In this document: piece after piece, positions 6,620-32,505 of the stretch
Numbering within the stretch: the first letter of the stretch is position 1
Layout of the letters: each line of letters begins with the position of its first letter
Source of the DNA: Catajapyx aquilonaris
Lineage: Eukaryota
Length of the DNA: 33,471 nt
Assembly (NCBI GenBank): GCA_000934665.2
Contig: KZ539100.1
Coordinates: 1-33,471 of the forward strand
Reading direction: 5' to 3'
The notes under the pieces: generated by a model
Databases searched by the model: none
What the model saw: only the letters and a program-made list of their open reading frames with translations
Told to the model about the DNA's origin: nothing
Made by a program: the position numbers and the translations under genes

Positions 6620-7291
6620 TCACAAGTTTTCTCTCGTATGAATTCGCATGTGAACCTTCAATTTACTTGAATCACTAAATTTTTTCTGGCACACCTCACA
6701 AGTGAATGGTTTTTCTCCTGTATGCATTCGCATGTGCTTTTTCAAATGACTCGAATCAGTAAATTTTTTCTGGCACACCTCACAAGTGAATGGTTTTTCT
6801 CCTGTATGAATGCGCATGTGCTTTTTCAAATCACCTGGATAATTAAATTTTTTCTGGCACACCTCACAAGTGAATGGTTTTTCTCCTGTATGAGTGCGCA
6901 TGTGAATTTTCAATTCACTTGGATAATTAAATTTTTTCTGGCACACCTCACAAGTGAATGGTTTTTCTCCTGTATGAGTGCGCATGTGAATTTTCAAATC
7001 ACTTGGATAATGAAATTTTTTCTGGCAGACCTCACAAGTAAATGCCCCCTTGACTGAATGAATTCGATTGTGAGACATCAGCTGCTTTGAATCAGAAAAT
7101 TCTATCTGGCAAATATGGCAATAAGTGCTTTTACTATGAATCATCATGTGCAATTTCAAATCATGCTGGGTGCCAAAAGGTTTCTGACACATTCTGCACT
7201 GAAATGGATTATTTCTACCGCATATTCCTCTGCTCCTTTCCTCTTGCATCCCACTCTCTTCAACTCCATCTTCACTTGTCACATGCAGGAC
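6620..7291 (-). CDS. ZNF gene A, finger exon (7 C2H2 fingers); spliced protein about 311 aa
   Basis: Acceptor TTTCAG|GTC at 7292/7291, phase 0; CxxC..HxxxH repeats with TGEKPF linkers; joins exon 9892-10155 in frame. Confidence 0.92.
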   Translation of the reverse strand, partial: VLHVTSEDGVEESGMQEERSRGICGRNNPFQCRMCQKPFGTQHDLKLHMMIHSKSTYCHICQIEFSDSKQLMSHNRIHSVKGAFTCEVCQKKFHYPSDLKIHMRTHTGEKPFTCEVCQKKFNYPSELKIHMRTHTGEKPFTCEVCQKKFNYPGDLKKHMRIHTGEKPFTCEVCQKKFTDSSHLKKHMRMHTGEKPFTCEVCQKKFSDSSKLKVHMRIHTRENL

Positions 7292-7319
7292 CTGAAATGT
7301 AAATGACAGGACATTAATT

Positions 7320-7700
7320 TCTATTAAGAAGTATGGAAAGTGTGAAGCTTTCAACCTGATTTTGGCATTTGGAAGACATTCCTTCTTATGAAAGCTCAAG
7401 GGATTGTCTCAGAGATCCTCTCATTGTAGAGACGGATGCAAGGAGAGATGCACTATCAGCTCTGCACTCCTCAAGGACAAGGGGTTTACGGGGATATTCT
7501 TCACTCTAGGTCACAATATCACACCCGAGACAATATCTTCCTGTCCACCCAGGAGCTTAAGGTGAGAATAACAACTGCCATAAGTGCTGAACCAGACGTA
7601 CCAGCACTGCCCGCTGTGCAATAAACCAGCTCCAAATAGGACTATGCCCATCCACAAAAAAGGAGATCCAAATGACCCTAAGAATTACCTAATCACTCAC
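7320..7700. mobile_element. Old LINE remnant in the gene A intron
   Basis: PIHKKGDPNDPKNY (RT motif, + strand); homologous to 19050-19400 in gene C and weakly to about 13630-13720 in gene B. Confidence 0.6.
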
Positions 7701-8021
7701 GTGGTGATTTGCCAATCTTGTTTTGTCCCTTCTCCCTCCCGCCTTTTTCTAGTCAAGTTCTTAACATGGTTTTATTTTTGGCTTCACATAGATAAAAGAA
7801 TTGCAGGTGTAATTAGCCAAAGAGGCCTTACCACCTGTGGGCAACAAACCAACGATGTCCGGCTCCCAGATCCATACAGTCTGGGGCCGGGGCATACGAA
7901 ACGTTCCAAGTCAATATTGTCCCAAGGAAGAACCGGAGCCGAAGCCCCAGGCCCCCGGAACCAGCATTAGCCCAAGCCCCCCTGGGCCGGCTTCACATAC
8001 TGCAATTCAATGTCATGTGGC

Positions 8022-8296
8022 CAGGCGCGGATCCAGGGGGGNNNNNNNNNNNNNNNNNNNNNNNNNNNNNNNNNNNNNNNNNNNNNNNNNNNNNNNNNNN
8101 NNNNNNNNNNNNNNNNNNNNNNNNNNNNNNNNNNNNNNNNNNNNNNNNNNNNNNNNNNNNNNNNNNNNNNNNNNNNNNNNNNNNNNNNNNNNNNNNNNNN
8201 NNNNNNNNNNNNNNNNNNNNNNNNNNNNNNNNNNNNNNNNNNNNNNNNNNNNNNNNNNCCCCCCCCCCCCTGAAAACATTTCTGGATCTGCGTCTG
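8022..8296. mobile_element. hAT-type non-autonomous element spanning the assembly gap
   Basis: TIR CAGGCGCGGATCCAG / CTGGATCTGCGTCTG; 8-bp TSD CATGTGGC (8014-8021, 8297-8304). Confidence 0.85.
8042..8258. other. Assembly gap (N run) flanked by G and C homopolymers
   Basis: Run of n characters. Confidence 0.99.
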
Positions 8297-8387
8297 CATG
8301 TGGCACATGCTTTAGCCTAACGAATAAGTTTGTTATAATGAACACAAGAAATGAGCAGGATGTACTGGATCCCTTTATTTATCATAT

Positions 8388-9171
8388 TGTCAGACATGGA
8401 ACAAGAATCCAGCCTCATTTGCGAGGCGTGGGACGGTTTTATTACAAAGACGCAATAAGTACGGGGTCATTCCTTTATTCCTGGAATAATAAGTCTCATT
8501 TCGTAAGCGTGGGATAGAATTGGTACCGAGACGCAAAAGAGTGAAGACACTCTTTTATTCCTGGGAAAGTATCCCACTATCATTGTGGAGAATGACTTGC
8601 CAACAAAAGTACCTGCGTCTAAGGAAGGTGAGCCACGTCAGAAAGCGTAAATAACATGAAGCAGTATAGGCTCACCCTTCCAATGACGAACAAAGCACTG
8701 TCAGCCACCTCCTGACCTTTGCGACTCATGCGATCTAATTCCGACCTTTGGGTGACTTTCCGACAGGAAAGGGTTTGGCGGGCGATGCACTAATACTTCG
8801 GAGAAATGCCATCCAGGAGGGGATATAAAAAGGGGTGGTCTATCTGACCAGAGACTGACTGAGACAGAGAGAGCTTGGCAGAGAGAGTTCCACCAACAGC
8901 CCAGATCAACGTAGATCTACCGTACAAGATGATTGGCATCAAGGGGCGTGAGTATAAGTCCTAACAGGACCCCCTGTTGTCTCCCCTCCAGTGTCTGTTG
9001 CTGTTTGTTGATCGTTCGTTCCCTGAATAAAAATATGTTTCATGTGGAAAACGAAGTGCGGTGTCTTTCTCCTGATCTCCCCTGCTTGACCAACTCGACT
9101 GAGTATTCCGGCACCGAAAGATCTGCCGAATTACGACCCTATTTTGCCGCTAAACTGGCGACAATCTGACA
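8388..9171 (+). mobile_element. Solo LTR (784 bp) in the gene A intron, antisense to the gene
   Basis: TGTCAGA...TCTGACA termini; 4-bp TSD ATAT (8384-8387, 9172-9175); TATA-like GATATAAAA near 8822; AATAAA near 9026. Confidence 0.88.
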
Positions 9172-9891
9172 ATATAAGATGTTTTTCTCCCCGAGTATGG
9201 GCGTCTTACGGACTCCGTTAAACACTGACACAAATTACCTGAAGATGCATGGAATGATGATAATTATTATCTTCTACTGCATATGAAGAACTACATAAAG
9301 TGGAAAGCCGCGTTTGCCCCTATCTGTTGCGGTTGAGACCCTGATACCTGTCAACAGACGGGCAGACAGAGCCATTCTAAGAGACTTTTTTTTTTTTTTT
9401 TCGATGATGATAAAAGTCTAAAGAGGGAAGAGCAAGAGGATGCACTATATTGAGCGCGCCGGATCTGACATCGCTCATATCTCGAAAATGGCTGCGAAGC
9501 GTGGGTTTTTACGTTCACCAGTGAATTCTACGCATGTGATTTACCCTCTGACCGATTTTTGTCCAAATCCTTCATATGGCTACATAGGGAGTTGTGGGGG
9601 CCTGGTCTGGGCTAAAGGCATACAACAAGCAGAAGACATTGTGAATCCATGGTAAAATGATGATCCATACTCTCTTACGGGGAAAAAAAAAACACTTGAA
9701 TGTGATCAAATAGGCAAATATCATGCAGATGTTGGAAGGGGAACAATTTACATCAATAAGTGGCTGAACAGGCAGAGCTGGAGGGTGGGTACTCCCACAA
9801 TATCTTTTCCATGCCTATGTGTTTGATTAGGATTGATGATTTGTTGTCGCTTCTGGGTAAAATTATACTGCAATTTCAGCAGATGGCTTAC

Positions 9892-10155
9892 CCCACTATT
9901 CCCTCCAGATCCAAGACCCAAAGGGTCATCTTCATCATCACCCTCCCTGGGCATGTCCACCACCATCTCCTCCTCCGCTTCCTCCTTCTTGACCTCAAGG
10001 AGAGTGTCTTCCATGAGCGCAGTAGACTCACTGTCCAGCCATGGTGGTGGTGCTTCCTCCTCCTTCACCCTTAGCCTCCAACTCTCCTCATCCACTGTGA
10101 TGTCCTCCTCCTCCTTCACTTCCTCCTCCTTCTTTATCTTCAGGATGAAAGACAT
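9892..10155 (-). CDS. ZNF gene A, first coding exon (88 aa acidic N-terminal domain)
   Basis: TTTGCAG|GGCC-ATG start context; MSFILKIKKEEEVKEEEDITVDEESWRLRVKEE...DDPL; donor GG|GTAAGC at 9891; 264 nt, phase 0; upstream UTR-intron donor GTGAGT at 10311. Confidence 0.88.
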
Positions 10156-10491
10156 GGCCCTGCAAACACAAGAAGTGGAGGTCATGGAGTCAAGGAGTAT
10201 TCCAATCAAGGCAACAATACTGAAGATGAGGAACATTATTCCTCTGAGAAGTGTGGGCAAAGGGAAGCAAACCAGATCAGTTCCATCCCCACCACTACAA
10301 CTTCAACTCACCCTTCTTCTTCCCTCCAGAGTGCCAATTGATGCGTGGACGAGAGGGGAAGGGGGAAGAAGAGTCCCTCCCCCGTCTGGGGTTCCAATGG
10401 AATCCAGGGGACTGTGAGACGGGTTCAAACAGAGTTCCTATTCACACGAAAAGAAGAAGAAGAAGATAGAATCGTCAGGACAGAATATTCT

Positions 10492-10625
10492 TCAGGCGGC
10501 CATCTTTTTTATGCAAATGAGGGTGCGTTCCTACCCCCACACCTGGTCGGAAGGACGGGATTAGACGCTATTGCTACTTCCCAAGTCGCCGCTACTGGTG
10601 AGGCTGCTATGCGCTAATAGCTCTT
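10492..10625 (-). promoter_or_regulatory. Conserved promoter/5' cassette of gene A
   Basis: GCGGCCATCTT (YY1/Pho-like), ATGCAAAT, GAGGGTGCGTTC, GGAAGG, CGCTATT and GCCGCTACT blocks repeated upstream of the paralogues. Confidence 0.7.
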
Positions 10626-10888
10626 CTCGGAACATAATCATTACACTTTCTCACTTTTGTTAAAGAAAGGTTCCGATGTTCCGATTTAACTCAAAGAATT
10701 CTGGAATCGATCCTCATAAAGTGTCCCTTCTGAGAATAGTATTCCACGAGCCACTCCATAAATTAATAATGTCTAGGCTACTTCCTGAAATAAAATAAGG
10801 AACTTCAATAATGAGAGGGTTTGGTATTTTGTGAATTTCTTTGTGGTTCATGGAGAGAATTTATTGCCATCAAACATTATGCACAACC

Positions 10889-10891
<3 letters not shown>

Positions 10892-10923
<32 letters not shown>
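10892..10923. repeat. (CT)n microsatellite
   Basis: Read directly. Confidence 0.95.
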
Positions 10924-10927
<4 letters not shown>

Positions 10928-11495
10928 ACTGGTTTTTAAAGAATGCAACATTAAAAATTTCTTCACACATATTGTCGTCAACTAGTTCACATTCTAAGGT
11001 CGTTTTCGAGGGGGCGGATTCTGATTTTTTTTTTTTCCCCATGAGCCAACAAATAGTCTGTGAGGATGGGCAGAGTTGTTTCCCCTAAATGTAACGTATT
11101 TGATGTAACTCTGCCTACTGCTGCAAGTGGTTTGCATTATTATTTTGTACAACTTTTTTACAAGGAATTCCGCACAATAATGCAAGGTGACTCTAAAGTC
11201 AGGTTTCACAGGTAAGTAGCAGCAGAGCCCGTTCTTCGCATGGCCTATTTCCATGGTGATCACACCAACACAATCCCGTCGCCACGGGCAAACAAAAAAC
11301 AAAGAAACTTTGCCTTGCGTAGATTTTGAAAATTTATAGCAGCAAACCCGTGTGTAGTGTCGGGTGTTGAACTTGGTATCAGCCAATGTGTCACGCAGAA
11401 GTGATTGAAAGCGGAGGGAGAATATTATCAAGTACAGTACCAAATACAGTTTTACGCCGTTCGATTGTATGCCGGTTTGAAAATAACATTTTTAA

Positions 11496-12012
11496 CCCTG
11501 TAACCGTGCCATGGGGTCTTTTTGGACCCCAAGGAAAAAATGCATGTAAATGATAATTACAATGAACGTCTGCCATTTTTTTTACAGTATGACCGAAGCA
11601 GGTTGGCATAGTGGATAAAAGGCGTCCGACTGCTAATCGGGAGGTCCTGGGTTCGAATCCCAGGGCAGGCAACCTTGGCCGTGGTTTTCTGTGGTTTTCC
11701 ACGGTCTTTCTACGATAATTCCGGGGTCGCTTCCATACAATAGGCCACAGTCCCTTCCTTTCCTATCCTTGGAGGTTGAATGGCAAATGCTGGGCCAACC
11801 TCCTTAAAAATATCAATTAAAGTATATAACAGGAAGTGCAGGTTTATTTTGAATTAGTGATCCTTTTAGGCATTGTTCAAAGAATGATTGTATATAGTCA
11901 ATACATTGAAAATTATTATATAAGAATTAATTGAAATAAAAATATGGTGGGGTCCGAAAAGACCCCACGGCACAGTTGCCGTAATACTCGTAGGTACGGC
12001 ACGGTTCCAGGG
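11496..12012. mobile_element. piggyBac-type non-autonomous element
   Basis: TTAA on both sides; TIR CCCTGTAACCGTGCC / GGCACGGTTCCAGGG (14/15); asymmetric subterminal inverted repeat GGGGTCTTTTTGGACCCC / GGGGTCCGAAAAGACCCC. Confidence 0.88.
11594..11812 (+). mobile_element. tRNA-derived SINE nested in the piggyBac MITE
   Basis: A box TGGCATAGTGG (11604-11614); anticodon-like stem-loop TCCGA-CTGCTAA-TCGGG; T arm CTGGG-TTCGAAT-CCCAG (B box); no acceptor stem; SINE-like body GGTTTTCTGTGGTTTTCC...AGGCCAC..CTTCC; ends approximate. Confidence 0.8.
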
Positions 12013-12359
12013 TTAAATTTAAAAATTGTGAAAAGCATGACCATAACAACACAATCTGAACATAAGCACAACACTTCAACACTTTTGAGTCCAACCCGCA
12101 CGAACATGAAATAATCATATTTTTTGTCTTTCGTGGTGGCTTATTGTGGCGGGGTCTATCGATAAATACAGTGCCGCATTGTTGGTCCTCATCGGAACGC
12201 TCCAAAGCCTGTTAAATGCCATGTCCAGAGCACGAAAATCATGATCCATCGCAATGATCAATATTACAAATTATGACAGCCTGGTTGTGAAACTGCCAAG
12301 AAAGATTTCATGTATACTTTGCTCAAGCCAGGCTGATAATAATGCCTACGGTAAAAGCC

Positions 12360-12517
12360 TGAGCAAGACCTGCAACTGCAACAAAAGATTTTCTGGCTCA
12401 CCTCACAAGCTAATGGTTTATCTTTCAATTCTTTCTGTTCGGATTCGCATGTGCCTTTTCAAATCACTTGAATGACGAAATTATTTTCTGGCACACTTCA
12501 CAACTAAATAGATTTAT
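12360..12517 (-). pseudogene. Decayed zinc-finger repeats downstream of the gene B stop
   Basis: After TGA the sequence continues TGTGAAGTGTGCCAGAAA...AAGGCACATGCGAATC...AAACCATT..TGTGAGGTGAGCCAGAAA with indels. Confidence 0.75.
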
Positions 12518-13570
12518 TCATGTATGAATTCGCATGTGCTGTTTCAAATGACCTGGATGATTAAATTTTTTGTGGCACACTTCACAAACATATGGTTTTT
12601 CTCCTGTGTGAACATGCATGTGATATTTCAAACTACTTGAAACACCAAATGTTTTCTGGCACACCTCACACTTAAATGGTTTATCTTCTGTATGATTTCG
12701 CATGTGAATTTTCAATGCACTTGATTCACGAAAGTTTTTCTGGCACACCTCACAAGTAAATGGTTTTTCTCCCGTATGAATTCGCATGTGCTTTTTCAAT
12801 GCACTTGAATCACGAAATTTTTTCTGGCACACCTCACAGGTGAATGGCTTTTCTCCTGTATGAATTTGCATGTGATTCTTCAATCTACTTGAATCACATA
12901 AGATTTTCTGGCACACCTCACAAGCGAATGGGTTCTCCCCAGTATGAATTCGCATGTGATTCTTCAATGTACCTGAATTACTAAATTTTTCCTGGCACAC
13001 CTCACAGGTAAATGGTTTTTCTCCTGTATGAATTCGCATGTGCTTTTTCAATGTACTTGCAACACTAAATTTTTTCAGGCACACATCACAAGTGAATGGT
13101 TTTTCTCCTGTGTGAATTTGCATGTGATTCTTCAATCTACTTGAATCACACAATGTTTTCTGGCACACCTCACAGGTGAATGGATTATCTCCGGTATGAA
13201 TTAGCACGTGGACTTTCAACTTACTTGATTCACGAAATTTTTTCTGGCACACCTCACAAGTAAATGGTTTTTCTCCATGAATTCGCATGTGCTTTCTCAA
13301 TGCACTTGAATTGCTAAACTCTTTCTGGCACACCTCACAAGGAAATGGTTTTTCTCCTGTATGGATTTGATTGTGAGACTTCAGCTGAGTTGAATCTTCA
13401 AAAGTGCTTTTACTATGAATCATCATGTGAAGTTTCAAATCGATATGCGTACCAAAATGTTTCCGGCATATTCTGCACTGAAATGGATTATTTCCATCAC
13501 ATTTTCCCCTGTCCGTGTCCTCTTGGATGCCATTCTCTTCAACTCCATCTTCAGTTTCCACTTGCACAAC
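12518..13570 (-). CDS. ZNF gene B, finger exon (11 intact plus 1 broken C2H2 finger); spliced protein about 430 aa
   Basis: Acceptor TTCCAG|GTT at 13571/13570, phase 0; open array with TGEKPF linkers. Confidence 0.92.
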   Translation of the reverse strand, partial: VVQVETEDGVEENGIQEDTDRGKCDGNNPFQCRICRKHFGTHIDLKLHMMIHSKSTFEDSTQLKSHNQIHTGEKPFPCEVCQKEFSNSSALRKHMRIHGEKPFTCEVCQKKFRESSKLKVHVLIHTGDNPFTCEVCQKTLCDSSRLKNHMQIHTGEKPFTCDVCLKKFSVASTLKKHMRIHTGEKPFTCEVCQEKFSNSGTLKNHMRIHTGENPFACEVCQKILCDSSRLKNHMQIHTGEKPFTCEVCQKKFRDSSALKKHMRIHTGEKPFTCEVCQKNFRESSALKIHMRNHTEDKPFKCEVCQKTFGVSSSLKYHMHVHTGEKPYVCEVCHKKFNHPGHLKQHMRIHT

Positions 13571-16141: not shown

Positions 16142-16381
16142 CCCACTAGTCCTTCCTGATTCAACTGCCAAAGGGTCCGCTTCATCCTCAACCTCCCTTG
16201 ACATGTCCACCAGCATCTCTTCCTCCTCCTCCGCTTCCTCCTTTTTGACTTCACAAAGGGTGTCTTCTATATCATCAAAGGAAGACGGCACTTCCTCCTT
16301 CAACGGCAGCCTCCAAGTCTCATCATCTTCCTCCACCTCCTCCTCCGCTTCCTCCTTCTTGATCTTCACGATGAAAGACAT
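16142..16381 (-). CDS. ZNF gene B, first coding exon (80 aa acidic domain)
   Basis: TTTGCAG|GACC-ATG; MSFIVKIKKEE...ETWRLPLKEE...EADPL; donor GG|GTACAT (weak but at the homologous position) at 16141; phase 0. Confidence 0.82.
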
Positions 16382-16702
16382 GGTCCTGCAAACACAAAGA
16401 GTGGAGGTCATTATGCCAAGTGTAGCATCCCCAATCAAGGCAATTGGAAAGAAGGAACATTCTCTCTGATGAGAGGTGTGTGGGCACAGGGAACAAGCTA
16501 ATCAGACAGGCACGCACTGATGATCACCACTCCACTCGCCCTTCTTCTCCTTCCTTCCTTCCTTCCCTCCCCAGTCCACACCACCCTTCAGAAGAGGCCC
16601 AAAAAGTCGACCGAACCGAATCCAGGGAATGAGACGGGTTGAAACGAGTTCCATTCACTCTCTCTCTCTGGACAACAAACTTCCAGATCGAATCAATATT
16701 GT

Positions 16703-16863
16703 TCAGGCGGCCATCTTTCTTTTCTTTTTCTTTTTTTTTATGCAAATGAGGGTGCGTTCCTGTCGCCACACACCGGAGAGTTGGAAGGACGGGCTTATGC
16801 GCTATTCATCCGCTCTAAAGAATCGCCGCTACTCGTAACGGCTGTTATCGGCTAATAGCTCTT
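16703..16863 (-). promoter_or_regulatory. Conserved promoter/5' cassette of gene B
   Basis: Same motif order as in genes A, C and D. Confidence 0.7.
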
Positions 16864-17593: not shown

Positions 17594-19021
17594 TCACAAG
17601 TTTTCTCTTGTATGAATTCGCATGTGAACCTTCAAGGTACTTGAATCACGAAAGTTTTTCTGGCACACCTCACAAGCGAATGGTTTTTCTCCTGTATGAA
17701 TTCGCACGTGAATTTTCAAATGACTTGAATGACGAAATTTTTTCTGGCAGACCTCACAAGTAAAGGGTTTTTCTCCTGTATGGATACGCATGTGAATTTT
17801 CAACGGACCTAATTGAGTAAATTTTGTCTGGCACACCTCACAAGTGAATGGTTTTTCTCCTGTATGAATTCGCATGTGAATCTTCAAGTTACTTGAATCA
17901 CGGAATTTTTTCTGGCAGACCTCACAAGTAAATGGTTTGTCTCCTGTATGAATTCGCATGTGAATCTTCAAGTTACTTGAATCACGGTATTTTTTCTGGC
18001 ACACTTTACAGGTAAATGGTTTTTCTCCTGTATGAATTCGCATGTGAACCTTCAAAGTACGTGAAGAACGAAATTTTTTCTGGCATACTTTACAAGTAAA
18101 TGGTTTTTCTCCTGTATGAACTCGAACATGAGTTTTCAAACCAAGTGAATCACTGAATTTTTTCTGGCACATCTCACAAGTAAAGGGTTTTTCTCCTGTA
18201 TGAACTCGAACATGAGTTTTCAAACAAAGTGAATCACGGAAATTTTTCTGGCACATCTCACAAGTAAATGGTTTTTCTCCTGTATGAATTCGCATGTGAA
18301 TTTTCAACTTATCTAAATAACTAAATTTTGTCTGACACACCTCACAAGTGAATGGTTTTTCTCCTGTATGAATTCGCATGTGAGTCTTCAAGTTACTTGA
18401 ATCACAGCATTTTTTCTGGCACACCTCACAGGTAAATGGTTTTTCTCCTGTATGAACTCGAACGTGAGTTTTCAAACCAAATGAATCACGAAATCTTTTC
18501 TGGCACACCTCACAAGTAAAGCGTTTATCTCCTGTATGAATTCGCTTGTGACTGTTCAACTTACCTAAATGACTAAATTTTTTCTGGCACGTCTCACAAG
18601 TGAACGGTTTGTCTCCTGTATGAATTCGCATGTGAACGTTCAAGTTACTAGAATCATTAAATTTTTTGTGGCACACATCACAAGTGAATGGTTTTTCTCC
18701 TGTATGAATGCGCATGTGCTTTTTCAAAACAGTTTGACATTTAAATTTTTTCTGGCACACCTCACAAGCAAATGCCCCCTTGACTGGATGAGTTCGATTG
18801 TGAGACTTCAGCTGAGTCGAATCATCAAATTCTATCTGGCAAATGTGGCAATAAGTGCTTTTACTATGAATCATCATGTGCAATTTCAAATCATGCTGGG
18901 TGCCAAAAGGTTTCTGGCATATGCTGCACTGAAATGGATTATTTCTAAGGCATATTCCTCCGCTCCTTTCCTCTTGCATCTCATTCTCTGCAACTCCATC
19001 TTCACTTGTCATGTGCACCAC
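17594..19021 (-). CDS. ZNF gene C, finger exon (16 C2H2 fingers); spliced protein about 566 aa
   Basis: Acceptor TTTCAG|GTG at 19022/19021, phase 0; open array. Confidence 0.93.
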   Translation of the reverse strand: MVHMTSEDGVAENEMQEERSGGICLRNNPFQCSICQKPFGTQHDLKLHMMIHSKSTYCHICQIEFDDSTQLKSHNRTHPVKGAFACEVCQKKFKCQTVLKKHMRIHTGEKPFTCDVCHKKFNDSSNLNVHMRIHTGDKPFTCETCQKKFSHLGKLNSHKRIHTGDKRFTCEVCQKRFRDSFGLKTHVRVHTGEKPFTCEVCQKKCCDSSNLKTHMRIHTGEKPFTCEVCQTKFSYLDKLKIHMRIHTGEKPFTCEMCQKNFRDSLCLKTHVRVHTGEKPFTCEMCQKKFSDSLGLKTHVRVHTGEKPFTCKVCQKKFRSSRTLKVHMRIHTGEKPFTCKVCQKKYRDSSNLKIHMRIHTGDKPFTCEVCQKKFRDSSNLKIHMRIHTGEKPFTCEVCQTKFTQLGPLKIHMRIHTGEKPFTCEVCQKKFRHSSHLKIHVRIHTGEKPFACEVCQKNFRDSSTLKVHMRIHTRENL

Positions 19022-19049
19022 CTGAAATGTAAATGACAGGACATTAATT

Positions 19050-20495: not shown

Positions 20496-20768
20496 ACCAC
20501 TACTTCCAGAACCTCCCGCTAAAGGGTCGTCCACATCTTCAACCACCCTAGGGATGGCCACCACCATCTCCTCCTCCTCCTCCTCCGCTTCCTCCTTCTT
20601 GACCTCACAAAGGGTGTCTTCCACGAGCGCAGTACACTCATTGTCCAGCCATGGCGATGGTGCTTCCTCCTCCTCCTTCACCCTCAGCCTCCAACTCTCC
20701 TCGTCCACTGTGATGTCCTCCTCCTCCTTCACTTCCTCCTCCTTCTTTATCTTCAGGATGAAAGACAT
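20496..20768 (-). CDS. ZNF gene C, first coding exon (91 aa acidic domain)
   Basis: TTTGCAG|GGCC-ATG; donor GT|GTAAGT at 20495; phase 0; UTR-intron donor GTGAGT at 20937. Confidence 0.88.
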
Positions 20769-21140
20769 GGCCCTGCAAACACAAAGAGTGGAGGTCATGT
20801 ATAGTCACGTCAAGTGTTGCATCCCCAATCACGGTGGCTGAAGAGGAGGGAGGGACACTCTCTCTCCCAGAGAAGTGTGTGGGCAAAGAGATGCAAACCA
20901 GATGAGTCCATCCCTTTCCCTCCCGATCCCCACTCACCCTTCCCTCTTCTTCCTTCAGACTTCAACTCGCCCTTCCTCCTCCTCTAGTGTGCCAACCAAC
21001 GATGTGTGGACGAGAGGGGAAGTGGGAAGAGTCCCTCCCCCGTCTGGGGTTCCAATGGAATCCAGGGGACAGTGAGACGGGTTCAAACAGAGTTACATTC
21101 ACCCGAAAGAAGAAGAGAGAGAATCGGGACAGAATAAAGT

Positions 21141-21268
21141 TCAGGCGGCCATCTTTTTTATGCAAATGAGGGTGCGTTCCTGTCGCCACACCCCAGAGAG
21201 TGGAAGGACGGGCTTATCCGCTATTCCCCCCTCGCCAGTCGCCGCTACTGGTGACGCTGCTATGCGCC
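21141..21268 (-). promoter_or_regulatory. Conserved promoter/5' cassette of gene C
   Basis: Same motif order; homology with gene D continues to about 21635 / 27815. Confidence 0.7.
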
Positions 21269-23137: not shown

Positions 23138-23965
23138 TCATGCGTGAATTCGCATGTGGTCTTTCAAATGATTTGAATAACGAAATTTCTTCTGGCAGAC
23201 CTCACAAGTATAGGGTTTCTCTCCTGTATGAATTCGATTGTGCTTTTTCAAGTTACTTGAATGAGTAAATTTTTTCTGGCAGACCTCACAAGCAAATGGT
23301 TTTTCTCCTGTATGAACTCTAATGTGGGTTTTTAATGCACCTGGTTTACGAAATTTTTTCTGGCACACCTCACAAGTAAAGGATTTATATCCTGCATGAA
23401 TTCGCTTGTGCCATTGCAATGTATCTGAAGCACGAAATTTTTTCTGGCACACCTCACAAGTAAATGGTTTTTCTCCAGTATGAATTCGCAAGTGGACCTT
23501 CAAATTACCTAAATTAGTAAACTTTTTCTGGCACACCTCACAAGTGAATGGTTTTTCTCCTGTATGAATCCACTTGTGCTTTTTTAAATTACATGAATCA
23601 CGGAATTTTTTCTCGCACACCTCACAAGTAAAGGGATTATCTCCTGTATGAATTCGCACGTGCTTTTTCAATGTACCTAAATCATTAAAAATTTTCTGGC
23701 ACACCTCACAAATAAATGCCAGCTTGACTGGATGAATTCTGTTGTGAGACTTCAGCTGAGTCGAATCATCAAATTTTATCTGGCAAATATGGCAATAAGT
23801 GCTTTTACTATGAATCATCATGTGCAATTTCAAGTCATGCTGCGTGCCAAAAGGTTTCTGGCATATTCTGCACTGAAATGGATTATTTCTACGGCATATT
23901 CCTCTGCTCCTTTCCTCTTGCATCTCACTCTCTGCTACTCCATCTTCACTTGTCACATGCAGGAC
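23138..23965 (-). CDS. ZNF gene D, finger exon (9 C2H2 fingers); spliced protein about 364 aa
   Basis: Acceptor TTTCAG|GTC at 23966/23965, phase 0; open array. Confidence 0.92.
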   Translation of the reverse strand, partial: VLHVTSEDGVAESEMQEERSRGICRRNNPFQCRICQKPFGTQHDLKLHMMIHSKSTYCHICQIKFDDSTQLKSHNRIHPVKLAFICEVCQKIFNDLGTLKKHVRIHTGDNPFTCEVCEKKFRDSCNLKKHKWIHTGEKPFTCEVCQKKFTNLGNLKVHLRIHTGEKPFTCEVCQKKFRASDTLQWHKRIHAGYKSFTCEVCQKKFRKPGALKTHIRVHTGEKPFACEVCQKKFTHSSNLKKHNRIHTGEKPYTCEVCQKKFRYSNHLKDHMRIHA

Positions 23966-24189: not shown

Positions 24190-26655
24190 GGCATGGAAAT
24201 GGAATTAAATCCCATGATCTTCCTGAAGACATTGCACTTCCGAAACATCTAATGATACTAGGCATTGTTGAAACATGGCAGGAGAAAGCTCCAGATTTGA
24301 AATTTTGGAAAAATAACATGGTATACTATTCACAAGAGGAAATACTCCACAGGTAGGCCTTCGGGGGGTATTGCCCTCTTTTGTCATCCTAAGGTTCCAC
24401 CCAAACTTATTTCTAGTTCTCCTTACTATCTATTAACGGATCAAACTTTCAAAACTTTACATCGGTTTCTGGCTATCGCCTATTTTCCACCCACAAGAGC
24501 AAGTGCTGAAGCTTTACATGCCTTCTTTAAAGAAATCGAAACCAAGGTCTTACAAAACCAACTTTTGCTAACAATGGCAGTTCTGACTGCTCCAACAGGG
24601 ACATTTCAGCTTAACACCTACCCATCCAACACTAGAAGGATGAAGTAATATCTGTCAGAGGCCAACTACTTATCGAGTACCTTGAAAACTTGACACTCAC
24701 ATTATTAAATGAAACTACAGTAAATCGAACCATTCCCCAATTACCACTACCTTATTCTGGACTGGAAAAAGTGTGGACAAAAAAATTACAGAAATCCGAA
24801 GCTATTATACCACTCCCAAAATGATGAACCCCTCCGAATAATTAAATGGCCTGGAAGAGGAGTGTACGGAAAGGTTGACCAACAAACTCTGTACTGTACA
24901 GACCCGGGTCGAATTCTGCCCTTCCCAAGAAAATTTCTAATACAAAGAGGTATCATTAAGATAAGGCAAGTTGATTTACAAATACGTACATTCCTTTTCC
25001 CATAAGCCATGGGTGGACCCTACAGTTAAAAACCTTCACAAGATAATGTAGAACTACCGTAAAGATACTTAAAAATCACTACTCCAGCGTAAATTAGACA
25101 AAAAAAAAGACTGAGTTCTTCAAGGAGACACTAAACAGCCCCATTGACACACGAACGTTCAGTGGACGTTCGTGAATGTGCAGGGAATGTGATGTATGTT
25201 CTGTACATTCAGTGAACGTTCCGTGAATGTTCGTAGAGGGACATACATGGAATGTTTTACTTGAATGTTCTGTGAACGTTCAGTGAATGTTCCCCATTGA
25301 CACACCAACATGAAGAGGACGTTCGTGAATGTGCAGGGAATGATCTGAATGTTCCGTATGTTCAGGGAATGTTCCGTGAATGTTCATCTCTGGACATACA
25401 TAGAATGCTCTATTGGAATGTTCATTGAACGTTACGTGAACATTTCCTCGCGCGCGAGCGCCGCGCCACCTGTCGGCACTAGTGTATCTAAGTGCCGACA
25501 GGTGGCTACACTTATTGGGCAGTCGTCATCCGCCATATGGCCATAACCGCCATTAGTCCTGCCCATGGCCTGGCCATCAGCCGTATGCGGTCCCCCAGCA
25601 TTATCGGCAACCCCTAATTTGGTTGGACACGGCGCGGCGGTAGTTGGACGACACGGACGACACGTATGCAGACGAGCGAGTCGCCTGCTGGTGAAACTCA
25701 GAGGTGACGTTCACACTTTGTCTGCCATGATAGTATATAAAATATATGTATCTCTTATATGACACCATTTTCTTATTCCTCAAGGATAGAGAAAGCTCGT
25801 CTAGGGAATGAGGAACAGGACAGCATATAGTAGGAACAAGCACTGACAATGTCCTGTGTTGCACAAGGCACTGAAGGCTTCATTCACCAGTGACTGCGGA
25901 CTGCAGTGAACTCTTGTGGTCAGCAGTGACAATGTGCTCAAGAGGCTTCCTAGGATCCACATTCATGTTCTTATGTGATTAATAAAAGTCATATCCACAT
26001 GTTTCATAATGCAGTATGTGCATGCTTTAATCACCTGCAAGTATCCCGTATCTTAAAACATTCAGTGAACATTCAGTGAACATTCAGGTTATGTGCACTT
26101 TTCATTCAGTGAACATTCAAAGTATGTGCATAGAACATTCAGTGAACGTTCAGAGTATGTGAATAGAACATTCAGTGAACATTCAGAGTATGTGCACAGA
26201 ACAGTCAGTGGATGTTGATAACAAATGTGCAGTGAACGTTTCAAAATGAGACATCATCAACATTCACTTGATGTTCCCTTGAACATTCACTTGATGTTCC
26301 CTTGAACATTCACTGAACGTTCGAATGTTCAGCATGGAACGTTAACTGAACACAATGTTGATGTGTCAATGGGGAGATTAGCCAAAGCAAATGATCCGCG
26401 TGAATTCTCGCAACACATAAATAGGGACCACTCTCCCTGGCAAGCATAATCTGTGACGATACTCGGAAGGAATAGTTTCAAGAAACATGTTCTCGCTTCT
26501 AACTCCCGACGATAATAATGGGACACTGTCAAAACATATTAGAGTACGGAATAAATAGTTTGGACTAGAAAAAGAGCCTGACCAGGCTATTATGAAACTT
26601 TAGGATAAATCTGTACCAGGAATCGATGGTATCCCTAACTCATTCTTCAAGAAGG
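24190..26655 (+). mobile_element. Degenerate LINE ORF2 fragment (EN to start of RT) in the gene D intron, interrupted by a DNA transposon
   Basis: STGRPSGGIALF (EN motif, about 24350) and PGIDGIPNSFFK (RT N-terminus, about 26617-26652); boundaries approximate. Confidence 0.65.
25139..26374. mobile_element. EnSpm/CACTA(CMC)-like non-autonomous DNA transposon
   Basis: TIR CCCCATTGACACA / TGTGTCAATGGGG; 2-bp TSD AG; many subterminal GAAC(A/G)TTC(AGT) repeats at both ends; left end tandemly duplicated (about 152 bp, second copy from about 25292). Confidence 0.82.
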
Positions 26656-26718
26656 ATTGATGATTTATTGGTGTCTCTTCATCGTAAAATCATACTGTAA
26701 TTCCAGCAGTTTACTTAC

Positions 26719-26985
26719 ACCACTACTTCCAGAACCTCCCGCTAAAGGGTCGTCTTCATCTTCTTCCACCTTTGGCATGTCCACCACCATCTCTTCCTCC
26801 TCCCCTCCTTCCTCCTCCTTGATCTCGAGGAGAGTGTCTTCCACGACAGTAGAGTCACTGTCCAGCCATGGTGGTGGTGCTTCCTCCTCCTCCTTCACCC
26901 TCAGCCTCCAACTCTCCTCGTCCACTGTGATGTCCTCCTCCTCCTTCACTTCCCCTTCCTTCTTTATCCTCAGGATCAAAGACAT
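26719..26985 (-). CDS. ZNF gene D, first coding exon (89 aa acidic domain)
   Basis: TTTGCAG|GGCC-ATG; donor GT|GTAAGT at 26718; phase 0; UTR-intron donor GTGAGT at 27158. Confidence 0.88.
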
Positions 26986-27341
26986 GGCCCTGCAAACACA
27001 CAAGAGGGGAGGTCATGTATAGCCATGTCATGGGTAGTATCTCCCCTAATCAAGGCAGCTGAAGAGGAGAGAGGGACACTTTCTCTCCCAGAGAAGTGTG
27101 CGGGCAAAGTGAAGCAAACCAGATGGGTCCATCCCTTTCCCTCCCGATCCCCACTCACCCTTCCCTCTTCTTCCTTCAGACTTCCAACTCGCCATTCCTC
27201 CTCCTCTACAGTGCCAATTGATGCGTGGACGAGAGGGGAAGGCGGAAGAGTACCTCACCCCTCTCCCTCTGGGGTTCCAATGGAATCCAGTGACTGTGAG
27301 ACGGGTTCAAACGGAGTTCCATTCACACGAAAAGGAGAGAA

Positions 27342-27480
27342 TCAGGCGGCCATCTTTCTTTTCTTTTTTAAAATGCGAATGAGGGTGCGTTCCTGTAGCC
27401 ACACACCAGAGAGTGGAAGGACGGCATTAGACGCTATCCGCACCTCGCCAGTCGCCGCTACTGGTGACGCTGCTATGCAC
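27342..27480 (-). promoter_or_regulatory. Conserved promoter/5' cassette of gene D
   Basis: Same motif order; octamer altered to ATGCGAAT. Confidence 0.7.
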
Positions 27481-28050
27481 CTTGCACATGAAGCTCCATT
27501 GGGCAAAGGTCATCAGTGACGAGCAATTTTATGGGTCGGACATTAGTGCCCGAAAAAAATATATTTGATAATGAGTGCCAATGATTGTGACGCAGGGAAT
27601 GCAAGAAGCACATGAAAATCCAACATAAGCGGTTTATTTTCACACGAGTTCATCTGAATATCGTGACAGATACCATGACCTGTGACCTAATTCGACATCA
27701 TCTGAACCGCTTCATTCATCCCTGTTCCTTCCAACAAGCCCGTCAGCGTGTCCCCTAACCTCAGCACGTACTCGGATGCTCACGCAGTCACGTCCAACAT
27801 CTTTCGCTTCTTTCGCATGGAGAACCTGGGTGTAGAATAGGTCCATCGGATGTCCCACAGTTAGCAGTAGTAACTATCAGTGGGACAAAAATTCCACCCC
27901 GGATTTTTGGGCATGAAAACATAGGCACGAAAAAACCCTCAAATAGGCACTGAAATATACGCAGCATACAAAAAAAAAAAATCTGTAATAGGCACAAAAT
28001 GTCTACAGCAACAGTTTGATCCCGAGTGAGCCTTGAAACACTTTTTCTCA

Positions 28051-29046
28051 TTATTTGCTGGATTTGGGTGGCCTGTCTTTAGCATGCACTACCTTGATAT
28101 GCTGCTTGATATTTGGTCTGCCTGCAAATCTTTTCCCGCAAACGTCACAAGCGTAAGGCCTCTCCCCGGTGTGCTTCTGCCGAATGTGGGCCTCTACTTC
28201 ACTCTTGCAGCTGAAAGCTTTATCACATTGGGGGCATTTGACCAGTTCAATCTTATGTCTCCTCCTGTGATAGTAAAGAGCATATCTGGACGTGAAGCAT
28301 TTCCCACATTCTGTGCATACATGAGATTCATCTTCCACATGTACAAACTTGTGCTTTTTCAAATAACTCGCCATACGAAAAGCCTTACCACACACGTCAC
28401 ATTCAAAGGGCCATTCCCTAGCAGCGTGAGTAGAACCATGTCTTACCAAATTACTCTTCGTAGTGAATGCCATGTCACATACAGTGCACCTGAACCGTTT
28501 CTCTGGGCCTGCCTTCGTATGTCTAATCAAGTGACTCTTGAGGCTTACCTCGTCCTCAAAAGTGGAGGAGCAGAATTGGCATTTTAGTAGTTGCGCCTGC
28601 CCAACATGAATCAATTTCTTCTGACGTTTCAAGTTCTCCGTAGATTTATATCTACTGTTGCAAACGTCCCTAGCAATGGTTTTCTCTTTCACATGTGTAC
28701 TTGCATGCCTCTTTAAGTTATAGTTGCATCTAAATGCCTTGTCACACACTCTGCAAACATGATTTCGCCGGTGCACTTTTGCATGTGCCAATAATGTGTT
28801 TCTACTTCTGAAGGACTTGTCACATCTGGTGCACTTGTGGGGCCTCTCTACAGGATGAGATTTCTTGTGCCGGCTCAGAGACCTCAAAGTCTTGCATATC
28901 TTGCCACAAAGGTCACAAGGGAAAGTTTTTTCTACAGTTTGGGCGCATGCGTGGGCTCTGGCCTTCCTTTCCTCATTAAAAACCACTCCGCAGACTGGGC
29001 AAGGGAAAGGAGTCTGCGCCTTTGTGCTCTCTTGATCTGCATTTGC
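28051..29046 (-). CDS. ZNF gene E, finger exon (about 10 diverse fingers, the first C2HC-like, plus 1 degenerate finger); spliced protein about 457 aa
   Basis: Acceptor AATAG|GCA at 29047/29046, in frame with ORF 28051-28986; non-homogenised fingers (CDLC, CTRC, CRVC, CQFC, CTVC, CDVC, CTEC, CPQC). Confidence 0.88.
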   Translation of the reverse strand, partial: ANADQESTKAQTPFPCPVCGVVFNEERKARAHACAQTVEKTFPCDLCGKICKTLRSLSRHKKSHPVERPHKCTRCDKSFRSRNTLLAHAKVHRRNHVCRVCDKAFRCNYNLKRHASTHVKEKTIARDVCNSRYKSTENLKRQKKLIHVGQAQLLKCQFCSSTFEDEVSLKSHLIRHTKAGPEKRFRCTVCDMAFTTKSNLVRHGSTHAAREWPFECDVCGKAFRMASYLKKHKFVHVEDESHVCTECGKCFTSRYALYYHRRRHKIELVKCPQCDKAFSCKSEVEAHIRQKHTGERPYACDVCGKRFAGRPNIKQHIKVVHAKDRPPKSSK

Positions 29047-29135
29047 CTATTTTTTTATATAAAAAAACAGCATTACATTTATAAAAAGCCAAGTGATCTT
29101 GTCACCACAGCTGCTTTCAAAGCTACATGACCCAC

Positions 29136-29324
29136 CTTTTCCTTCTCCAGACCCTCATCTGAATGGTTCTGCTTCGTCATCCTGAAACGCTTCAGAATTT
29201 CCGTCGTGCTAGGACCTCGGACTGCATCCGACTCTGGTTTGACACTGACTGTCAGGATCAGGCCACTGTCCGCAGCCGAGCTTTCACCTGCACACTCTGC
29301 CTCCTCCTTGTTCGACATGGACGG
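29136..29324 (-). CDS. ZNF gene E, middle coding exon (63 aa)
   Basis: Acceptor TTTCAG|CCG at 29325/29324; donor AAG|GTGGGT at 29135; phase 0 on both sides; contains VKPE. Confidence 0.78.
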
Positions 29325-29602
29325 CTGAAATGAAACACACACAGTTAATAATCAGGAATGAAATCAGCAGCTGATGCCACCTCACGTTCTCTCATGCACC
29401 TTACAGGCACCTCCATAATCTCTATTGATATCAAATGCAAAGTTGGTTTCTTTGTCCAAGTTTGCTCACCCTGGCAACAGGTGTCATTTGAATCAGCAAT
29501 GGTTGATTGATTGTTGATTATTATGTGACACCATGGAAACAGGCCTGTGTGAAGAGAGGGTTGCGTTTCTGGTTAATCAACAGAGATATTCCGCATGCTT
29601 AC

Positions 29603-29791
29603 CGCAGCCACACTGCCGTCGTCTTCCTCCGTTCCCACACCGTCATTAGCCCCCGAAGCATATCTTTCAAAGAAGCCAGGGTCCTCCTCCAGGCAGGAAG
29701 GCGTCTCCTCCTTGATCCGCAGGAGCCAAGTCTCCTCCGTCGTGATCTCCTCGTCCTCATCCTCCGCCGCTTCCTTCTTGATGGTCGGCAT
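29603..29791 (-). CDS. ZNF gene E, first coding exon (63 aa acidic domain)
   Basis: MPTIKKEAAEDEDEEITTEETWLLRIKEE, homologous to A-D exon 1; donor CG|GTAAGC at 29602; phase 0. Confidence 0.8.
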
Positions 29792-29969
29792 CGAAGACAA
29801 TGTCCTGAAGCGCCAGCTACACTTATTGCGGGGTTTGAATTCACCGAATGCGGTCCTCTTTGTGTTCCGCAGGCCGACGAACGCCAGTGTGGTCCTCGCC
29901 AAATCAGTGCGAATCAGAGAAATCAGCAGGCGAAACGAGAAGCGAAAGAGAGAGAGAGAGAGAGAGAGC

Positions 29970-30100
29970 TCAGAAGGACGCCATCTTGGATTTGGAGAGG
30001 GTGCATTCGGACGCCTGCCTCGAAAAGAAGAACCGATCGGACACTGGGAAGGTGAATAGCCGCTATTGAATGTAACTGCTACCTCCAATCACTGCTACTC
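29970..30100 (-). promoter_or_regulatory. Diverged promoter cassette of gene E, next to a (GA)n tract at about 29947-29968
   Basis: Retains CGCCATCTT, GAGGGTGCATTC, GGAAGG, CGCTATT and GCTAC blocks in the same order. Confidence 0.62.
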
Positions 30101-32503: not shown

Positions 32504-32505
32504 AG

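Follow-up and report, generated by a model that had tools for sequence, protein, structure and literature searches.

Five clustered zinc-finger genes of Catajapyx aquilonaris with a conserved acidic first coding exon, a candidate repression handle bearing SUMO acceptor motifs

A stretch of 33,471 nucleotides from Catajapyx aquilonaris (GenBank assembly GCA_000934665.2, contig KZ539100.1, positions 1 to 33,471, hereafter termed the window) carries five C2H2 zinc-finger genes (A to E), arranged in tandem on the minus strand with all reading frames intact. Ahead of the exon that encodes the fingers lies a short acidic first coding exon, which is a real, lineage-specific and unnamed exon of effector type with a presumed function. 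We give a probability of about 0.5 to the reading in which five intact poly-C2H2 genes stand in tandem with a common promoter, a 5′ exon and a disordered leader whose SUMO acceptor sites serve as a repression handle. The splicing, SUMOylation, repression and any TE target of A to E are what we infer from the DNA. The exons and upstream elements are listed below in window positions, with a slash at each splice boundary.

6620..7291, minus strand: gene A finger exon, 223 codons, 7 C2H2 fingers, stop TGA at 6620-6622; acceptor TTTCAG/ at 7291, phase 0
9892..10159, minus strand: gene A acidic first coding exon, ATG at 10155, last codon to 9892, 88 aa; acceptor TTTGCAG/ sets the exon start at 10159
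10313..10629, minus strand: gene A promoter and putative non-coding 5′ exon, AAGATGGC element at 10506, donor after 10312; placed by the alignment and blastn block of B versus A
12518..13570, minus strand: gene B finger exon, 350 codons, 11 fingers; acceptor ATTCCAG/ at 13570, phase 0
16142..16385, minus strand: gene B acidic first coding exon, ATG at 16381, 80 aa
16541..16867, minus strand: gene B promoter and putative non-coding 5′ exon, AAGATGGC at 16717, GC-type donor after 16540
17594..19021, minus strand: gene C finger exon, 475 codons, 16 fingers; acceptor TTTCAG/ at 19021, phase 0
20496..20772, minus strand: gene C acidic first coding exon, ATG at 20768, 91 aa
20939..21263, minus strand: gene C promoter and putative non-coding 5′ exon, AAGATGGC at 21155, donor after 20938 or 20971
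23138..23965, minus strand: gene D finger exon, 275 codons, 9 fingers; acceptor TTTCAG/ at 23965, phase 0
26719..26989, minus strand: gene D acidic first coding exon, ATG at 26985, 89 aa
27160..27476, minus strand: gene D promoter and putative non-coding 5′ exon, AAGATGGC at 27356, donor after 27159
28051..29046, minus strand: gene E finger exon, 331 codons, 9 fingers, non-canonical linkers; acceptor ATAG/ at 29046
29136..29324, minus strand: gene E putative middle coding exon, 63 codons, phase 0 at both ends, one V-K-P-E; acceptor TTTCATTTCAG/, donor AAG/GTGGGT
29603..29791, minus strand: gene E acidic first coding exon, 63 aa, of which only the first ~37 residues can be aligned with A to D
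29811..30100 (bounds approximate), minus strand: gene E promoter region, GCACCCTC...AAGATGGC elements as in A to D, AAGATGGC at 29987

Splice sites of good consensus, with donors and acceptors all in phase 0, suggest that the acidic exon is spliced to the finger exon, and every acidic exon ends at a phase-0 GT donor (A GGG/GTAAGC, B GGG/GTACAT, C GGT/GTAAGT, D GGT/GTAAGT and E GCG/GTAAGC). The first-pass annotation had each gene splice a separate exon of 63-91 aa in phase 0 directly onto the finger sequence; the lengths and the phase-0 sites hold, but direct joining is doubtful in gene E, where a putative additional exon of 63 codons probably lies between the two, so that its acidic exon may have no direct junction with the fingers. 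A Pfam search with this putative middle exon returned no match. Genes B and C (dS ~0.8) can be aligned in two blocks only, one running from the promoter to the acidic exon and the other being the finger exon, and because the first block ends ~40 nt beyond the acidic exon donor, a hidden middle exon in A to D appears to be absent. An upstream ATG is in frame in A to C and out of frame in D, which supports a start at M-S-F/L with an intron just upstream. To the earlier gene picture we add the promoter and the short putative non-coding 5′ exon, which by their sequence are common to genes A to E.

When a profile of the five acidic exons was run against the six-frame translation of the window, exactly these five copies were recovered, the next match having E 1.4. 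The columns invariant in the five-gene alignment include I-K-K-E, E..W.L, K..EE and one proline, in agreement with the earlier statement that the IKKE, E(S/T)W and KEE elements are kept in all five. They fall in a conserved core of ~37 residues, where two invariant predicted SUMO acceptor motifs, namely I-K-K-E close to the start and psi-K-E-E followed by proline, flank an invariant E-E-[S/T]-W-x-L. The exon DNA is GA-rich and its product has a net charge of -15 to -23 with 14-24 Glu per exon, and the first-pass annotation had asked for position-specific conservation past this E/K bias. Such conservation was found, since the exon of the old paralogue E scores 73-82 in local alignment with A to D versus 33-34 +/- 6 in shuffles (z 6.7-7.9), the observed score being reached by at most 1 of 2000 shuffles. 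The dN/dS of the acidic exon is 0.25-0.53 and lies below 1 in 10 of 10 gene pairs, and in the comparisons with E the pN is 0.23-0.28 in the core versus 0.49-0.51 in the tail. The dS among A, C and D is only 0.2-0.3, while that of gene E is saturated at ~1-1.5; in the A/C/D group pS is 0.05-0.15 in the core versus 0.26-0.32 in the tail, and this low core value may reflect gene conversion instead of selection. A, C and D are recent duplicates, and the five copies are worth about three independent lineages (A/C/D, B and E), on which conservation of the acidic exon was judged.

None of the five acidic exons matched Pfam at E <= 1, so KRAB (PF01352), SCAN (PF02023) and BTB are absent as the first-pass annotation had stated, and its further claim of no Cys scaffold, hence no ZAD, is upheld by 0, 1, 2, 0 and 1 cysteines in A to E, none of them conserved, and by the lack of a zf-AD (PF07776) match. 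Against 1.84 billion representative proteins the exon profile gave nothing at E 0.001 except one chance repeat match, a threshold that a likeness of 28 residues, the length of FiNZ, could not reach. The profile-profile comparison with KRAB that had been proposed alongside the Pfam search was likewise without a match, since hhalign against 9 KRAB boxes returned a probability of 0.2% over 3 aligned columns, and a profile comparison with a cockroach N-terminal family gave no match. The picture of an unnamed N-terminal exon in an expanding ZNF family is thus borne out by tandem poly-zinc-finger duplicates and the lack of a catalogued match.

The motif psi-K-x-E occurs 4, 3, 4, 4 and 2 times in the acidic exons of A to E, as against 0.43, 0.43, 0.47, 0.40 and 0.12 expected from 5000 shuffles each (P 0.0004, 0.0052, 0.0006, <0.0002 and 0.0046; enrichment 7-17-fold), which matches the 2-4 SUMO acceptor consensus sites per exon noted before. 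Nearly every lysine is involved, with 17 of 29 at the acceptor position and 28 of 29 inside a motif or within 2 residues of one, and no inverted, psi-K-x-D or psi-R-x-E form was found in the five exons. In 12 of the 17 motifs the next six positions hold 3-5 acidic residues; the remaining five represent the conserved second site, behind which all five genes have a proline. Genes A to D also have one or two acceptor motifs beyond the core pair, with an acidic run behind each. This arrangement recalls the NDSM, defined by psi-K-x-E/D and an acidic stretch behind it to which Ubc9 binds (PMC5727262; PMC3395311), and the short SUMOylation sites implicated in human repression domains (PMC9890238 citing DelRosso et al.), the shared traits being several copies per segment of psi-K-x-E with an acidic run and their location in a disordered region of a DNA-binding protein. 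Those described in these sources are single motifs in unrelated proteins, whereas here 2-4 predicted sites are fixed in a heritable family exon. In a Drosophila screen, SUMO sites were reported to be no commoner in repressive than in non-repressive fragments (PMC9890238). Richness in psi-K-x-E is a generic trait of poly-zinc-finger proteins, neither peculiar to this family nor evidence for a special mechanism: outside the fingers of 202 unrelated poly-zinc-finger proteins, drawn from many animals, the motif is also enriched 4.4-fold (330 observed versus 75.6 expected). As for the SIM-like hydrophobic cores in acidic flanks that had been pointed out, [VIL][VIL]x[VIL] or [VIL]x[VIL][VIL] occurs 1-2 times per exon with no excess over shuffles (P 0.15-0.54), and the positions of these cores are not conserved in gene E.

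The finger arrays hold 7, 11, 16, 9 and 9 fingers in A to E (Pfam zf-C2H2 E 4e-44 for gene A), and in gene B the second finger of the family is mostly deleted. Entropy over the 43 fingers of A to D is highest at positions 15, 18, 12, 11 and 14, among which are helix positions 3, 6, -1 and 2, which we take to be the DNA-contact residues; the DNA-contact positions are the most variable ones of these fingers. The array of gene E is 33% identical to that of gene C, and the best finger matches, at 26-48% identity, are spread over fish, insects, crustaceans and molluscs. AlphaFold2 gave the acidic exon a mean pLDDT of 62, a pTM of 0.17 and a single helix at 43-61, and its product is predicted to be intrinsically disordered. 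On the repression reading, the finger array with its paralogue-specific contact residues would carry the protein to DNA, the leader would be SUMOylated by Ubc9 with its NDSM-type acidic-run sites favouring modification, and the SUMO moieties would attract SIM-bearing co-repressors or heterochromatin factors. The acidic exon would thereby be a handle for repression, comparable in this to KRAB or FiNZ, and the A to E proteins might silence TEs through such SUMO-dependent co-repressors.

The same exon could be a transcriptional activation domain, in which W, L, F and M within acidic disorder contact Mediator or p300-type co-activators and the SUMO sites damp the output (synergy control), a reading that we consider possible although rather unlikely. 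Acidic activation domains are disordered and net acidic with interspersed aromatic residues and leucine, and the charge of the exon, its conserved W and L and its predicted disorder fit this description; repressor domains are reported to be less acidic on average, and the acidic composition with W, L, F and M suits an activation domain equally well (PMC12176270). The best conserved positions, however, are the lysine motifs and not the hydrophobic ones alone, and the clustered fast-diversifying families described so far, KRAB and FiNZ, repress (PMC10547256). Charge and disorder beside lysine/arginine-rich fingers would also suit an electrostatic autoinhibitor or DNA mimic that folds onto the basic fingers, curbs non-specific DNA binding and sharpens target choice with no cofactor. 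Acidic tails of DNA-binding proteins can act as electrostatic autoinhibitors, but we hold this explanation to be improbable here, as it explains neither why I-K-K-E, E-E-S/T-W-x-L and psi-K-E-E-x-P are conserved more than composition predicts nor why 28 of 29 lysines lie in or beside an acceptor motif.

A little less probable still is a functionless low-complexity leader, whose likeness among genes stems from recent duplication and gene conversion and whose motifs are by-products of GAG/AAG-rich DNA. The low dS of A, C and D, their even lower core pS (compatible with gene conversion) and the GA-rich exon are in line with this, yet gene E, with its saturated dS and an unrelated-looking finger array 33% identical to that of gene C, has kept the core at z 6.7-7.9, and dN/dS stays below 1 in all pairs with five frames intact. 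We find it very improbable that the exon is a true but highly divergent homologue of cyprinid FiNZ or of KRAB by common ancestry. In its favour, the gene layout agrees, an effector-encoding first coding exon being followed by an exon for the fingers, and glutamate is abundant in both (PMC10547256). The approximate FiNZ string given in the first-pass annotation resembles the exon in its start and in an E-E-S/T-aromatic element, and the three columns that hhalign paired with KRAB are E-E-W. Against ancestry stand the hhalign probability of 0.2%, the lack of a Pfam KRAB match at E <= 1 and the empty protein search (apart from the repeat artefact), in which a 28-residue likeness lay below reach, as well as the reported limitation of FiNZ to cyprinid/cypriniform fish (PMC10547256). 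The FiNZ likeness is probably convergence.

Among known families, the FiNZ-ZNFs of cyprinid fish (Wells et al. 2023, PMC10547256) are described as having a short glutamate-rich N-terminus in the first coding exon, fingers in the next, no resemblance to a catalogued domain, and clustered, fast-duplicating genes. Consensus sites give A to E this glutamate-rich layout of first-exon domain and second-exon fingers, gene E probably having an additional exon. FiNZ differs in its 28 residues, as against a core of ~37 in an exon of 63-91 here, and in its reported restriction to cypriniform fish with knock-down evidence for TE repression (PMC10547256). The KRAB-ZNF clusters of tetrapods, as described, are likewise tandem, with an effector exon in phase with the finger exon and variable finger numbers and contact residues (PMC4592553; PMC10547256; PMC6444547). 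In place of the KRAB box (Pfam none, hhalign 0.2%) the present genes have an acidic leader predicted to be disordered, and no direct KAP-1/TRIM28 orthologue is reported for insects (PMC6444547). The hemipteran ZF271-like/APEZ genes (Panfilio et al. 2019, PMC6444547) are insect poly-zinc-finger genes that lie 4-8 to a tandem cluster; their linkers are canonical, their gene structure differs and turnover continues, and they are described with neither KRAB nor another catalogued domain. That account covers fingers only and leaves the cofactor as an open question (PMC6444547), while A to E carry a conserved non-finger first exon. ZAD-ZNFs of arthropods also place an N-terminal module ahead of C2H2 arrays and expand in a lineage-specific manner, but ZAD is described as a zinc-binding dimerising fold on four cysteines (PMC7913770), in contrast to the few non-conserved cysteines and predicted disorder seen here.

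Fast-evolving clustered zinc-finger families occur across animals, and the effector handle is known for few, namely KRAB and partly FiNZ, ZAD and SCAN; for the insect expansions the published view, as given in PMC6444547, is of fingers only with partners unknown. A conserved, exon-encoded and predicted-disordered leader with fixed SUMO acceptor motifs is a concrete candidate for such a handle, tempered by the frequency of the SUMO consensus beside finger arrays in many animals, and the contribution of the window is a clean five-gene example and a sharper motif grammar, with no new principle. A bolder and unlikely extension would make the acidic exon an arthropod counterpart of KRAB/FiNZ without a folded domain, that is, a portable, heritable multi-SUMO-acceptor cassette of promoter, 5′ exon and acidic exon by which any DNA-binding module encoded after it would be made to silence in a SUMO-dependent manner. 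If true, this would be the effector that has been missing from the "domain-less" clustered zinc-finger expansions of insects. In the window the cassette precedes two unrelated-looking finger arrays, and no transposase-derived partner of the acidic exon was seen there. As side observations, the RT flanking the cluster has its matches in Chordata and Arthropoda, and CpG o/e is 0.65.

The five C2H2 zinc-finger genes of the cluster (genes A-E) span 6620-30100, all on the minus strand, and each begins with an ATG-initiated acidic coding exon (the leader) of 88 (A), 80 (B), 91 (C), 89 (D) or 63 (E) codons that ends in a phase-0 GT donor in 5/5 genes. The finger exon lies ~1.5-2.7 kb further on in A-D and 0.56 kb in E, and is open in every gene (Pfam zf-C2H2, E 4e-44 in gene A and 4e-39 in gene E).

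Finger exons of the five genes
7291-6620, minus strand, gene A, 7 fingers, phase-0 acceptor with polypyrimidine tract
13570-12518, minus strand, gene B, 11 fingers, phase-0 acceptor with polypyrimidine tract
19021-17594, minus strand, gene C, 16 fingers, phase-0 acceptor with polypyrimidine tract
23965-23138, minus strand, gene D, 9 fingers, phase-0 acceptor with polypyrimidine tract
29046-28051, minus strand, gene E, 9 fingers, phase-0 acceptor with polypyrimidine tract

A profile built from the five acidic exons found five copies only in the six-frame translation of the window (E 2e-46 to 2e-22; next match E 1.4). The exon junctions of all five genes are those that we infer from consensus splice sites, and with such donors and acceptors in 5/5 genes, the acidic exon would stand in phase 0 ahead of the finger sequence throughout, as the first-pass annotation had placed it. 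Between genes B and C (synonymous divergence ~0.8), two alignable blocks remain, one running from the promoter through ~40 bases 3′ of the acidic-exon donor and the other comprising the finger exon and ~140 bases upstream. Because only these two can be aligned, the exon boundaries are supported and a hidden middle exon conserved in A-D is ruled out. The earlier claim that a separate exon is joined onto the fingers would hold for A-D and may not hold in that direct form for gene E, where a candidate exon lies in between.

29324-29136, minus strand, gene E candidate middle exon, 63 codons, open, strong acceptor and donor, phase 0 at both ends

This stretch is probably an additional coding exon, and the frame would be kept if it were skipped. 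An assembly gap of 217 N (8042-8258) falls inside the main intron of gene A, so the content and length of that intron are uncertain.

The leaders differ in age. Duplication was recent in genes A, C and D, which are 80-82% identical at the protein level (dS 0.2-0.3), gene B is older (dS 0.65-0.97) and gene E is saturated (dS 1.0-1.5), so that the five copies count as roughly three lineages. The first ~30 residues of E align to the other four with local scores of 73-82, compared with 33-34 +/- 6 for shuffled E, the observed score being attained by at most 1/2000 shuffles, and conservation is thus position-specific beyond a bias towards E and K. At the DNA level, E is similar to B and C over the first ~100 exon bases only, and pN in comparisons with E is 0.23-0.28 in the first 37 codons and 0.49-0.51 in the remainder. 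The scores and the contrast in pN together indicate that the conserved unit is a core of ~37 residues, composed of an invariant I-K-K-E, an acidic spacer, E-E-[S/T]-W-x-L, psi-K-E-E and a proline; the IKKE, E(S/T)W and hydrophobic-KEE elements previously traced in all five genes, including the divergent gene E, all fall within it. A second block, E-D-T-L-x-E-psi-K-x-E-E followed by an acidic run, M-V/L-V-D and D-D-P-L, is common to A-D only. Within A/C/D, pS is 0.05-0.15 in the core vs 0.26-0.32 outside, which could be due to gene conversion.

The SUMO acceptor consensus psi-K-x-E, searched as [VILMF]-K-x-E, occurs 4, 3, 4, 4 and 2 times in the exons of A-E, where 0.12-0.47 would be expected (5000 shuffles each; P <= 0.005 each), in agreement with the 2-4 per domain first read from the sequence. 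In total, 17/29 lysines occupy the acceptor position and 28/29 lie within a motif or at most two residues away, and the five exons hold no inverted, K-x-D or R-x-E variants. Five of the 17 motifs represent a conserved second site followed by proline in 5/5 genes, which we take to correspond to the “synergy control” motif. In the other 12, three to five of the next six positions are acidic, and judged by sequence the motifs of the acidic exon match the negatively-charged-residue-dependent SUMO motif, in which, according to two reports, Ubc9 is bound by an acidic stretch lying downstream of the consensus site (PMC5727262; PMC3395311). The hydrophobic cores likened to SUMO-interacting motifs (SIMs) did not hold up, being no more frequent than in shuffles (P 0.15-0.54).

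For comparison, we counted the motif outside the fingers in 202 poly-zinc-finger proteins, retained from the 206 fetched in two finger-exon searches after dropping those with <40 non-finger residues. In this set, which contains paralogues (e.g., several salmonid and cockroach proteins), psi-K-x-E was observed 330 times vs 75.6 expected from shuffles, with at least two motifs in 83/202. Since runs of I-K-E-E-type motifs also occur in teleost, cockroach, cricket and moth proteins of the fetched set, SUMO-consensus-rich acidic regions beside finger arrays are widespread, and the motif density of our family (3.2-4.5 per 100 residues of leader) is at the dense end, not unique. A cockroach zinc-finger family (P0126, P0102, P0104, P0164, P0161, P0096) has an N-terminus of the form M-D/N-V-I-K-x-E and 4-13 psi-K-x-E motifs; kinship with the A-E leader was rejected by hhalign (probability 0.3%), and the family is an independent case of a SUMO-consensus-rich leader.

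The exon is of a known kind, a lineage-specific effector-type exon coupled to a diversifying finger array, and this particular exon matches nothing catalogued. None of the five acidic exons had a Pfam match at the curated threshold, and KRAB, zf-AD, SCAN and BTB were missing from Pfam results even at E <= 1; cysteines number 0-2 per exon and none is conserved. Kinship with KRAB was further rejected by hhalign against nine KRAB boxes from fetched proteins (probability 0.2%). The first reading, of a domain with no cysteine scaffold (hence not ZAD) and with no KRAB, SCAN or BTB signature, is therefore borne out, and so is its description as unnamed, as no credible match was found for the five exons in Pfam, or for their profile in 1.84 billion representative proteins or in the PDB. 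The single match in the exhaustive search of the 1.84 billion (E 9e-4) was rejected as a repetitive, unrelated protein, all PDB chains gave chance matches only (E 0.27-0.46), a word-index search among longer proteins gave none at E <= 0.001, and the best score in the ESM Atlas (0.87, to an unnamed chordate cluster) was under the meaningful level. No orthologue carrying the leader appeared among the matches listed in two finger-exon searches (86; best 120 of 1130), which were all generic at 26-48% identity, with fish, insects, crustaceans and molluscs all represented. Literature searches found no published description of the domain, and it is on this sole basis that we call the acidic exon undescribed. 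The best local matches to the leader profile among 207 fetched proteins were C-terminal stretches (residues ~591-621) of two prawn zinc-finger proteins (P0038, P0042), which read psi-K-x-E, V-K-E-E-E-D and then E-G-Y-F-x-Q-I-K-E-E; this likeness to the leader core is not significant (domain E ~0.1 in that set of 207 proteins only).

AlphaFold2, run on the five-sequence alignment, gave a low-confidence model (mean pLDDT 62, pTM 0.17) with a single helix at residues 43-61, and intrinsic disorder is the best reading of the acidic exon from these values. We propose, with a probability of about 0.5, that the leader is a disordered acidic effector whose fixed lysines would be SUMOylated, the attached SUMO then recruiting SIM-bearing repressors. 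Support in principle comes from the part that SUMO sites play in human repression domains and from SUMO-dependent heterochromatin formation in Drosophila, both given in a report that also describes repressive fragments from a Drosophila screen as having no SUMO-site enrichment (PMC9890238). The leader might also be an acidic activation domain, a reading that its composition fits, going by a report on such domains (PMC12176270), and that we consider unlikely on the whole. We give little credence to an electrostatic role in which the acidic leader would autoinhibit the basic finger array, and slightly less to a functionless leader conserved through recent duplication; dN/dS is 0.25-0.53 in 10/10 pairs of leaders.

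The effector reading has a parallel in the FiNZ-ZNF genes of fish, which have the same layout and the same composition as genes A-E. The likeness in sequence drawn in the first-pass annotation, to an approximate FiNZ string, is a putative one, and if the host genome is that of an arthropod it is convergent. True homology to FiNZ or KRAB is a separate question, of descent, and seems very improbable to us. According to the original report, ~700 zebrafish zinc-finger genes carry FiNZ, a glutamate-rich stretch of 28 residues at the N-terminus, in their first coding exon, and it is described there as without similarity to known domains and as found in cypriniform fish only; morpholino knock-down de-repressed young TEs, with the cofactor given as unknown (PMC10547256). 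TRIM33 was proposed as the FiNZ partner, together with a common origin of FiNZ and KRAB, in a later article (PMC11603059). A nearer biological context for A-E may lie in hemipteran insects, with their clustered ZF271-like/APEZ expansions; these are described as lacking both a KAP-1 partner and any domain other than the fingers, and the authors urge a search for alternative partners (PMC6444547).

The finger arrays vary in number from 7 to 16 across the five genes. Among the 43 canonical fingers of A-D, positions 15, 18, 12, 11 and 14 have the highest entropy, which presumably include helix positions 3, 6, -1 and 2 (the DNA-contact residues), and there is no variation in the cysteines, histidines, leucine or linkers; variable contact positions and finger numbers are the pattern of families diversifying their DNA specificity. 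Fingers 1 and 2 are conserved in A-D, except that most of finger 2 is deleted in B. Gene B also has one linker without threonine and a GC donor (16540) in its putative 5′ exon, and may be drifting towards a pseudogene, though its frame is open. Gene E has non-canonical linkers and an array that shares 33% identity with that of gene C, no more than it shares with zinc-finger proteins from other phyla (26-38%, among the matches listed); it is either an old paralogue or a promoter-plus-leader cassette joined to a different array. In gene C (17594-19021), the adjacent fingers 12 and 13 differ very little, as would be expected if part of the array had been duplicated recently.

Alignment of the five upstream regions revealed ~470-500 bases of promoter-like sequence common to genes A-D, including a GCACCCTC element and a AAGATGGC element, both of which are retained upstream of gene E.

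AAGATGGC preceded by GCACCCTC in the five promoters
10499-10506, minus strand
16710-16717, minus strand
21148-21155, minus strand
27349-27356, minus strand
29980-29987, minus strand

AAGATGGC resembles the YY1/Pho core motif; if transcribed, it would open an upstream reading frame of 3-4 codons in a strong start context. In A-D, a donor (AAGG/GTGAGT; gene B has GC instead), a 152-198-base intron and an acceptor (TTTGCAG/) four bases 5′ of the ATG make a non-coding 5′ exon most likely. An upstream ATG (M-T-S-T...) was rejected as the start, because the frame is not kept from it in D and its position falls inside the polypyrimidine tract of the acceptor; in A-C it is in frame, and would be intronic if the 5′ exon is non-coding. 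Dinucleotide repeats lie near the upstream sides of gene A ((CT)16, 10892-10923) and gene E ((AG)11, 29947-29968).

Open reading frames flank the cluster.

1352-2041, minus strand, reverse-transcriptase ORF (Pfam RVT_1, E 5e-22)
723-1229 and 32119-32511, minus strand, extended ORF stretches of nearly identical sequence, one towards either end of the window

The near-identity of the latter indicates that one repeat family brackets the cluster, and the Atlas places the reverse transcriptase near chordate and arthropod clusters both. Between A and B, a tRNA match on the plus strand (11604-11663; Rfam, 35.4 bits) probably stems from a repeat of tRNA origin or from a decayed copy, ARAGORN having reported no tRNA gene in the window. 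The CpG o/e of the window is 0.65.
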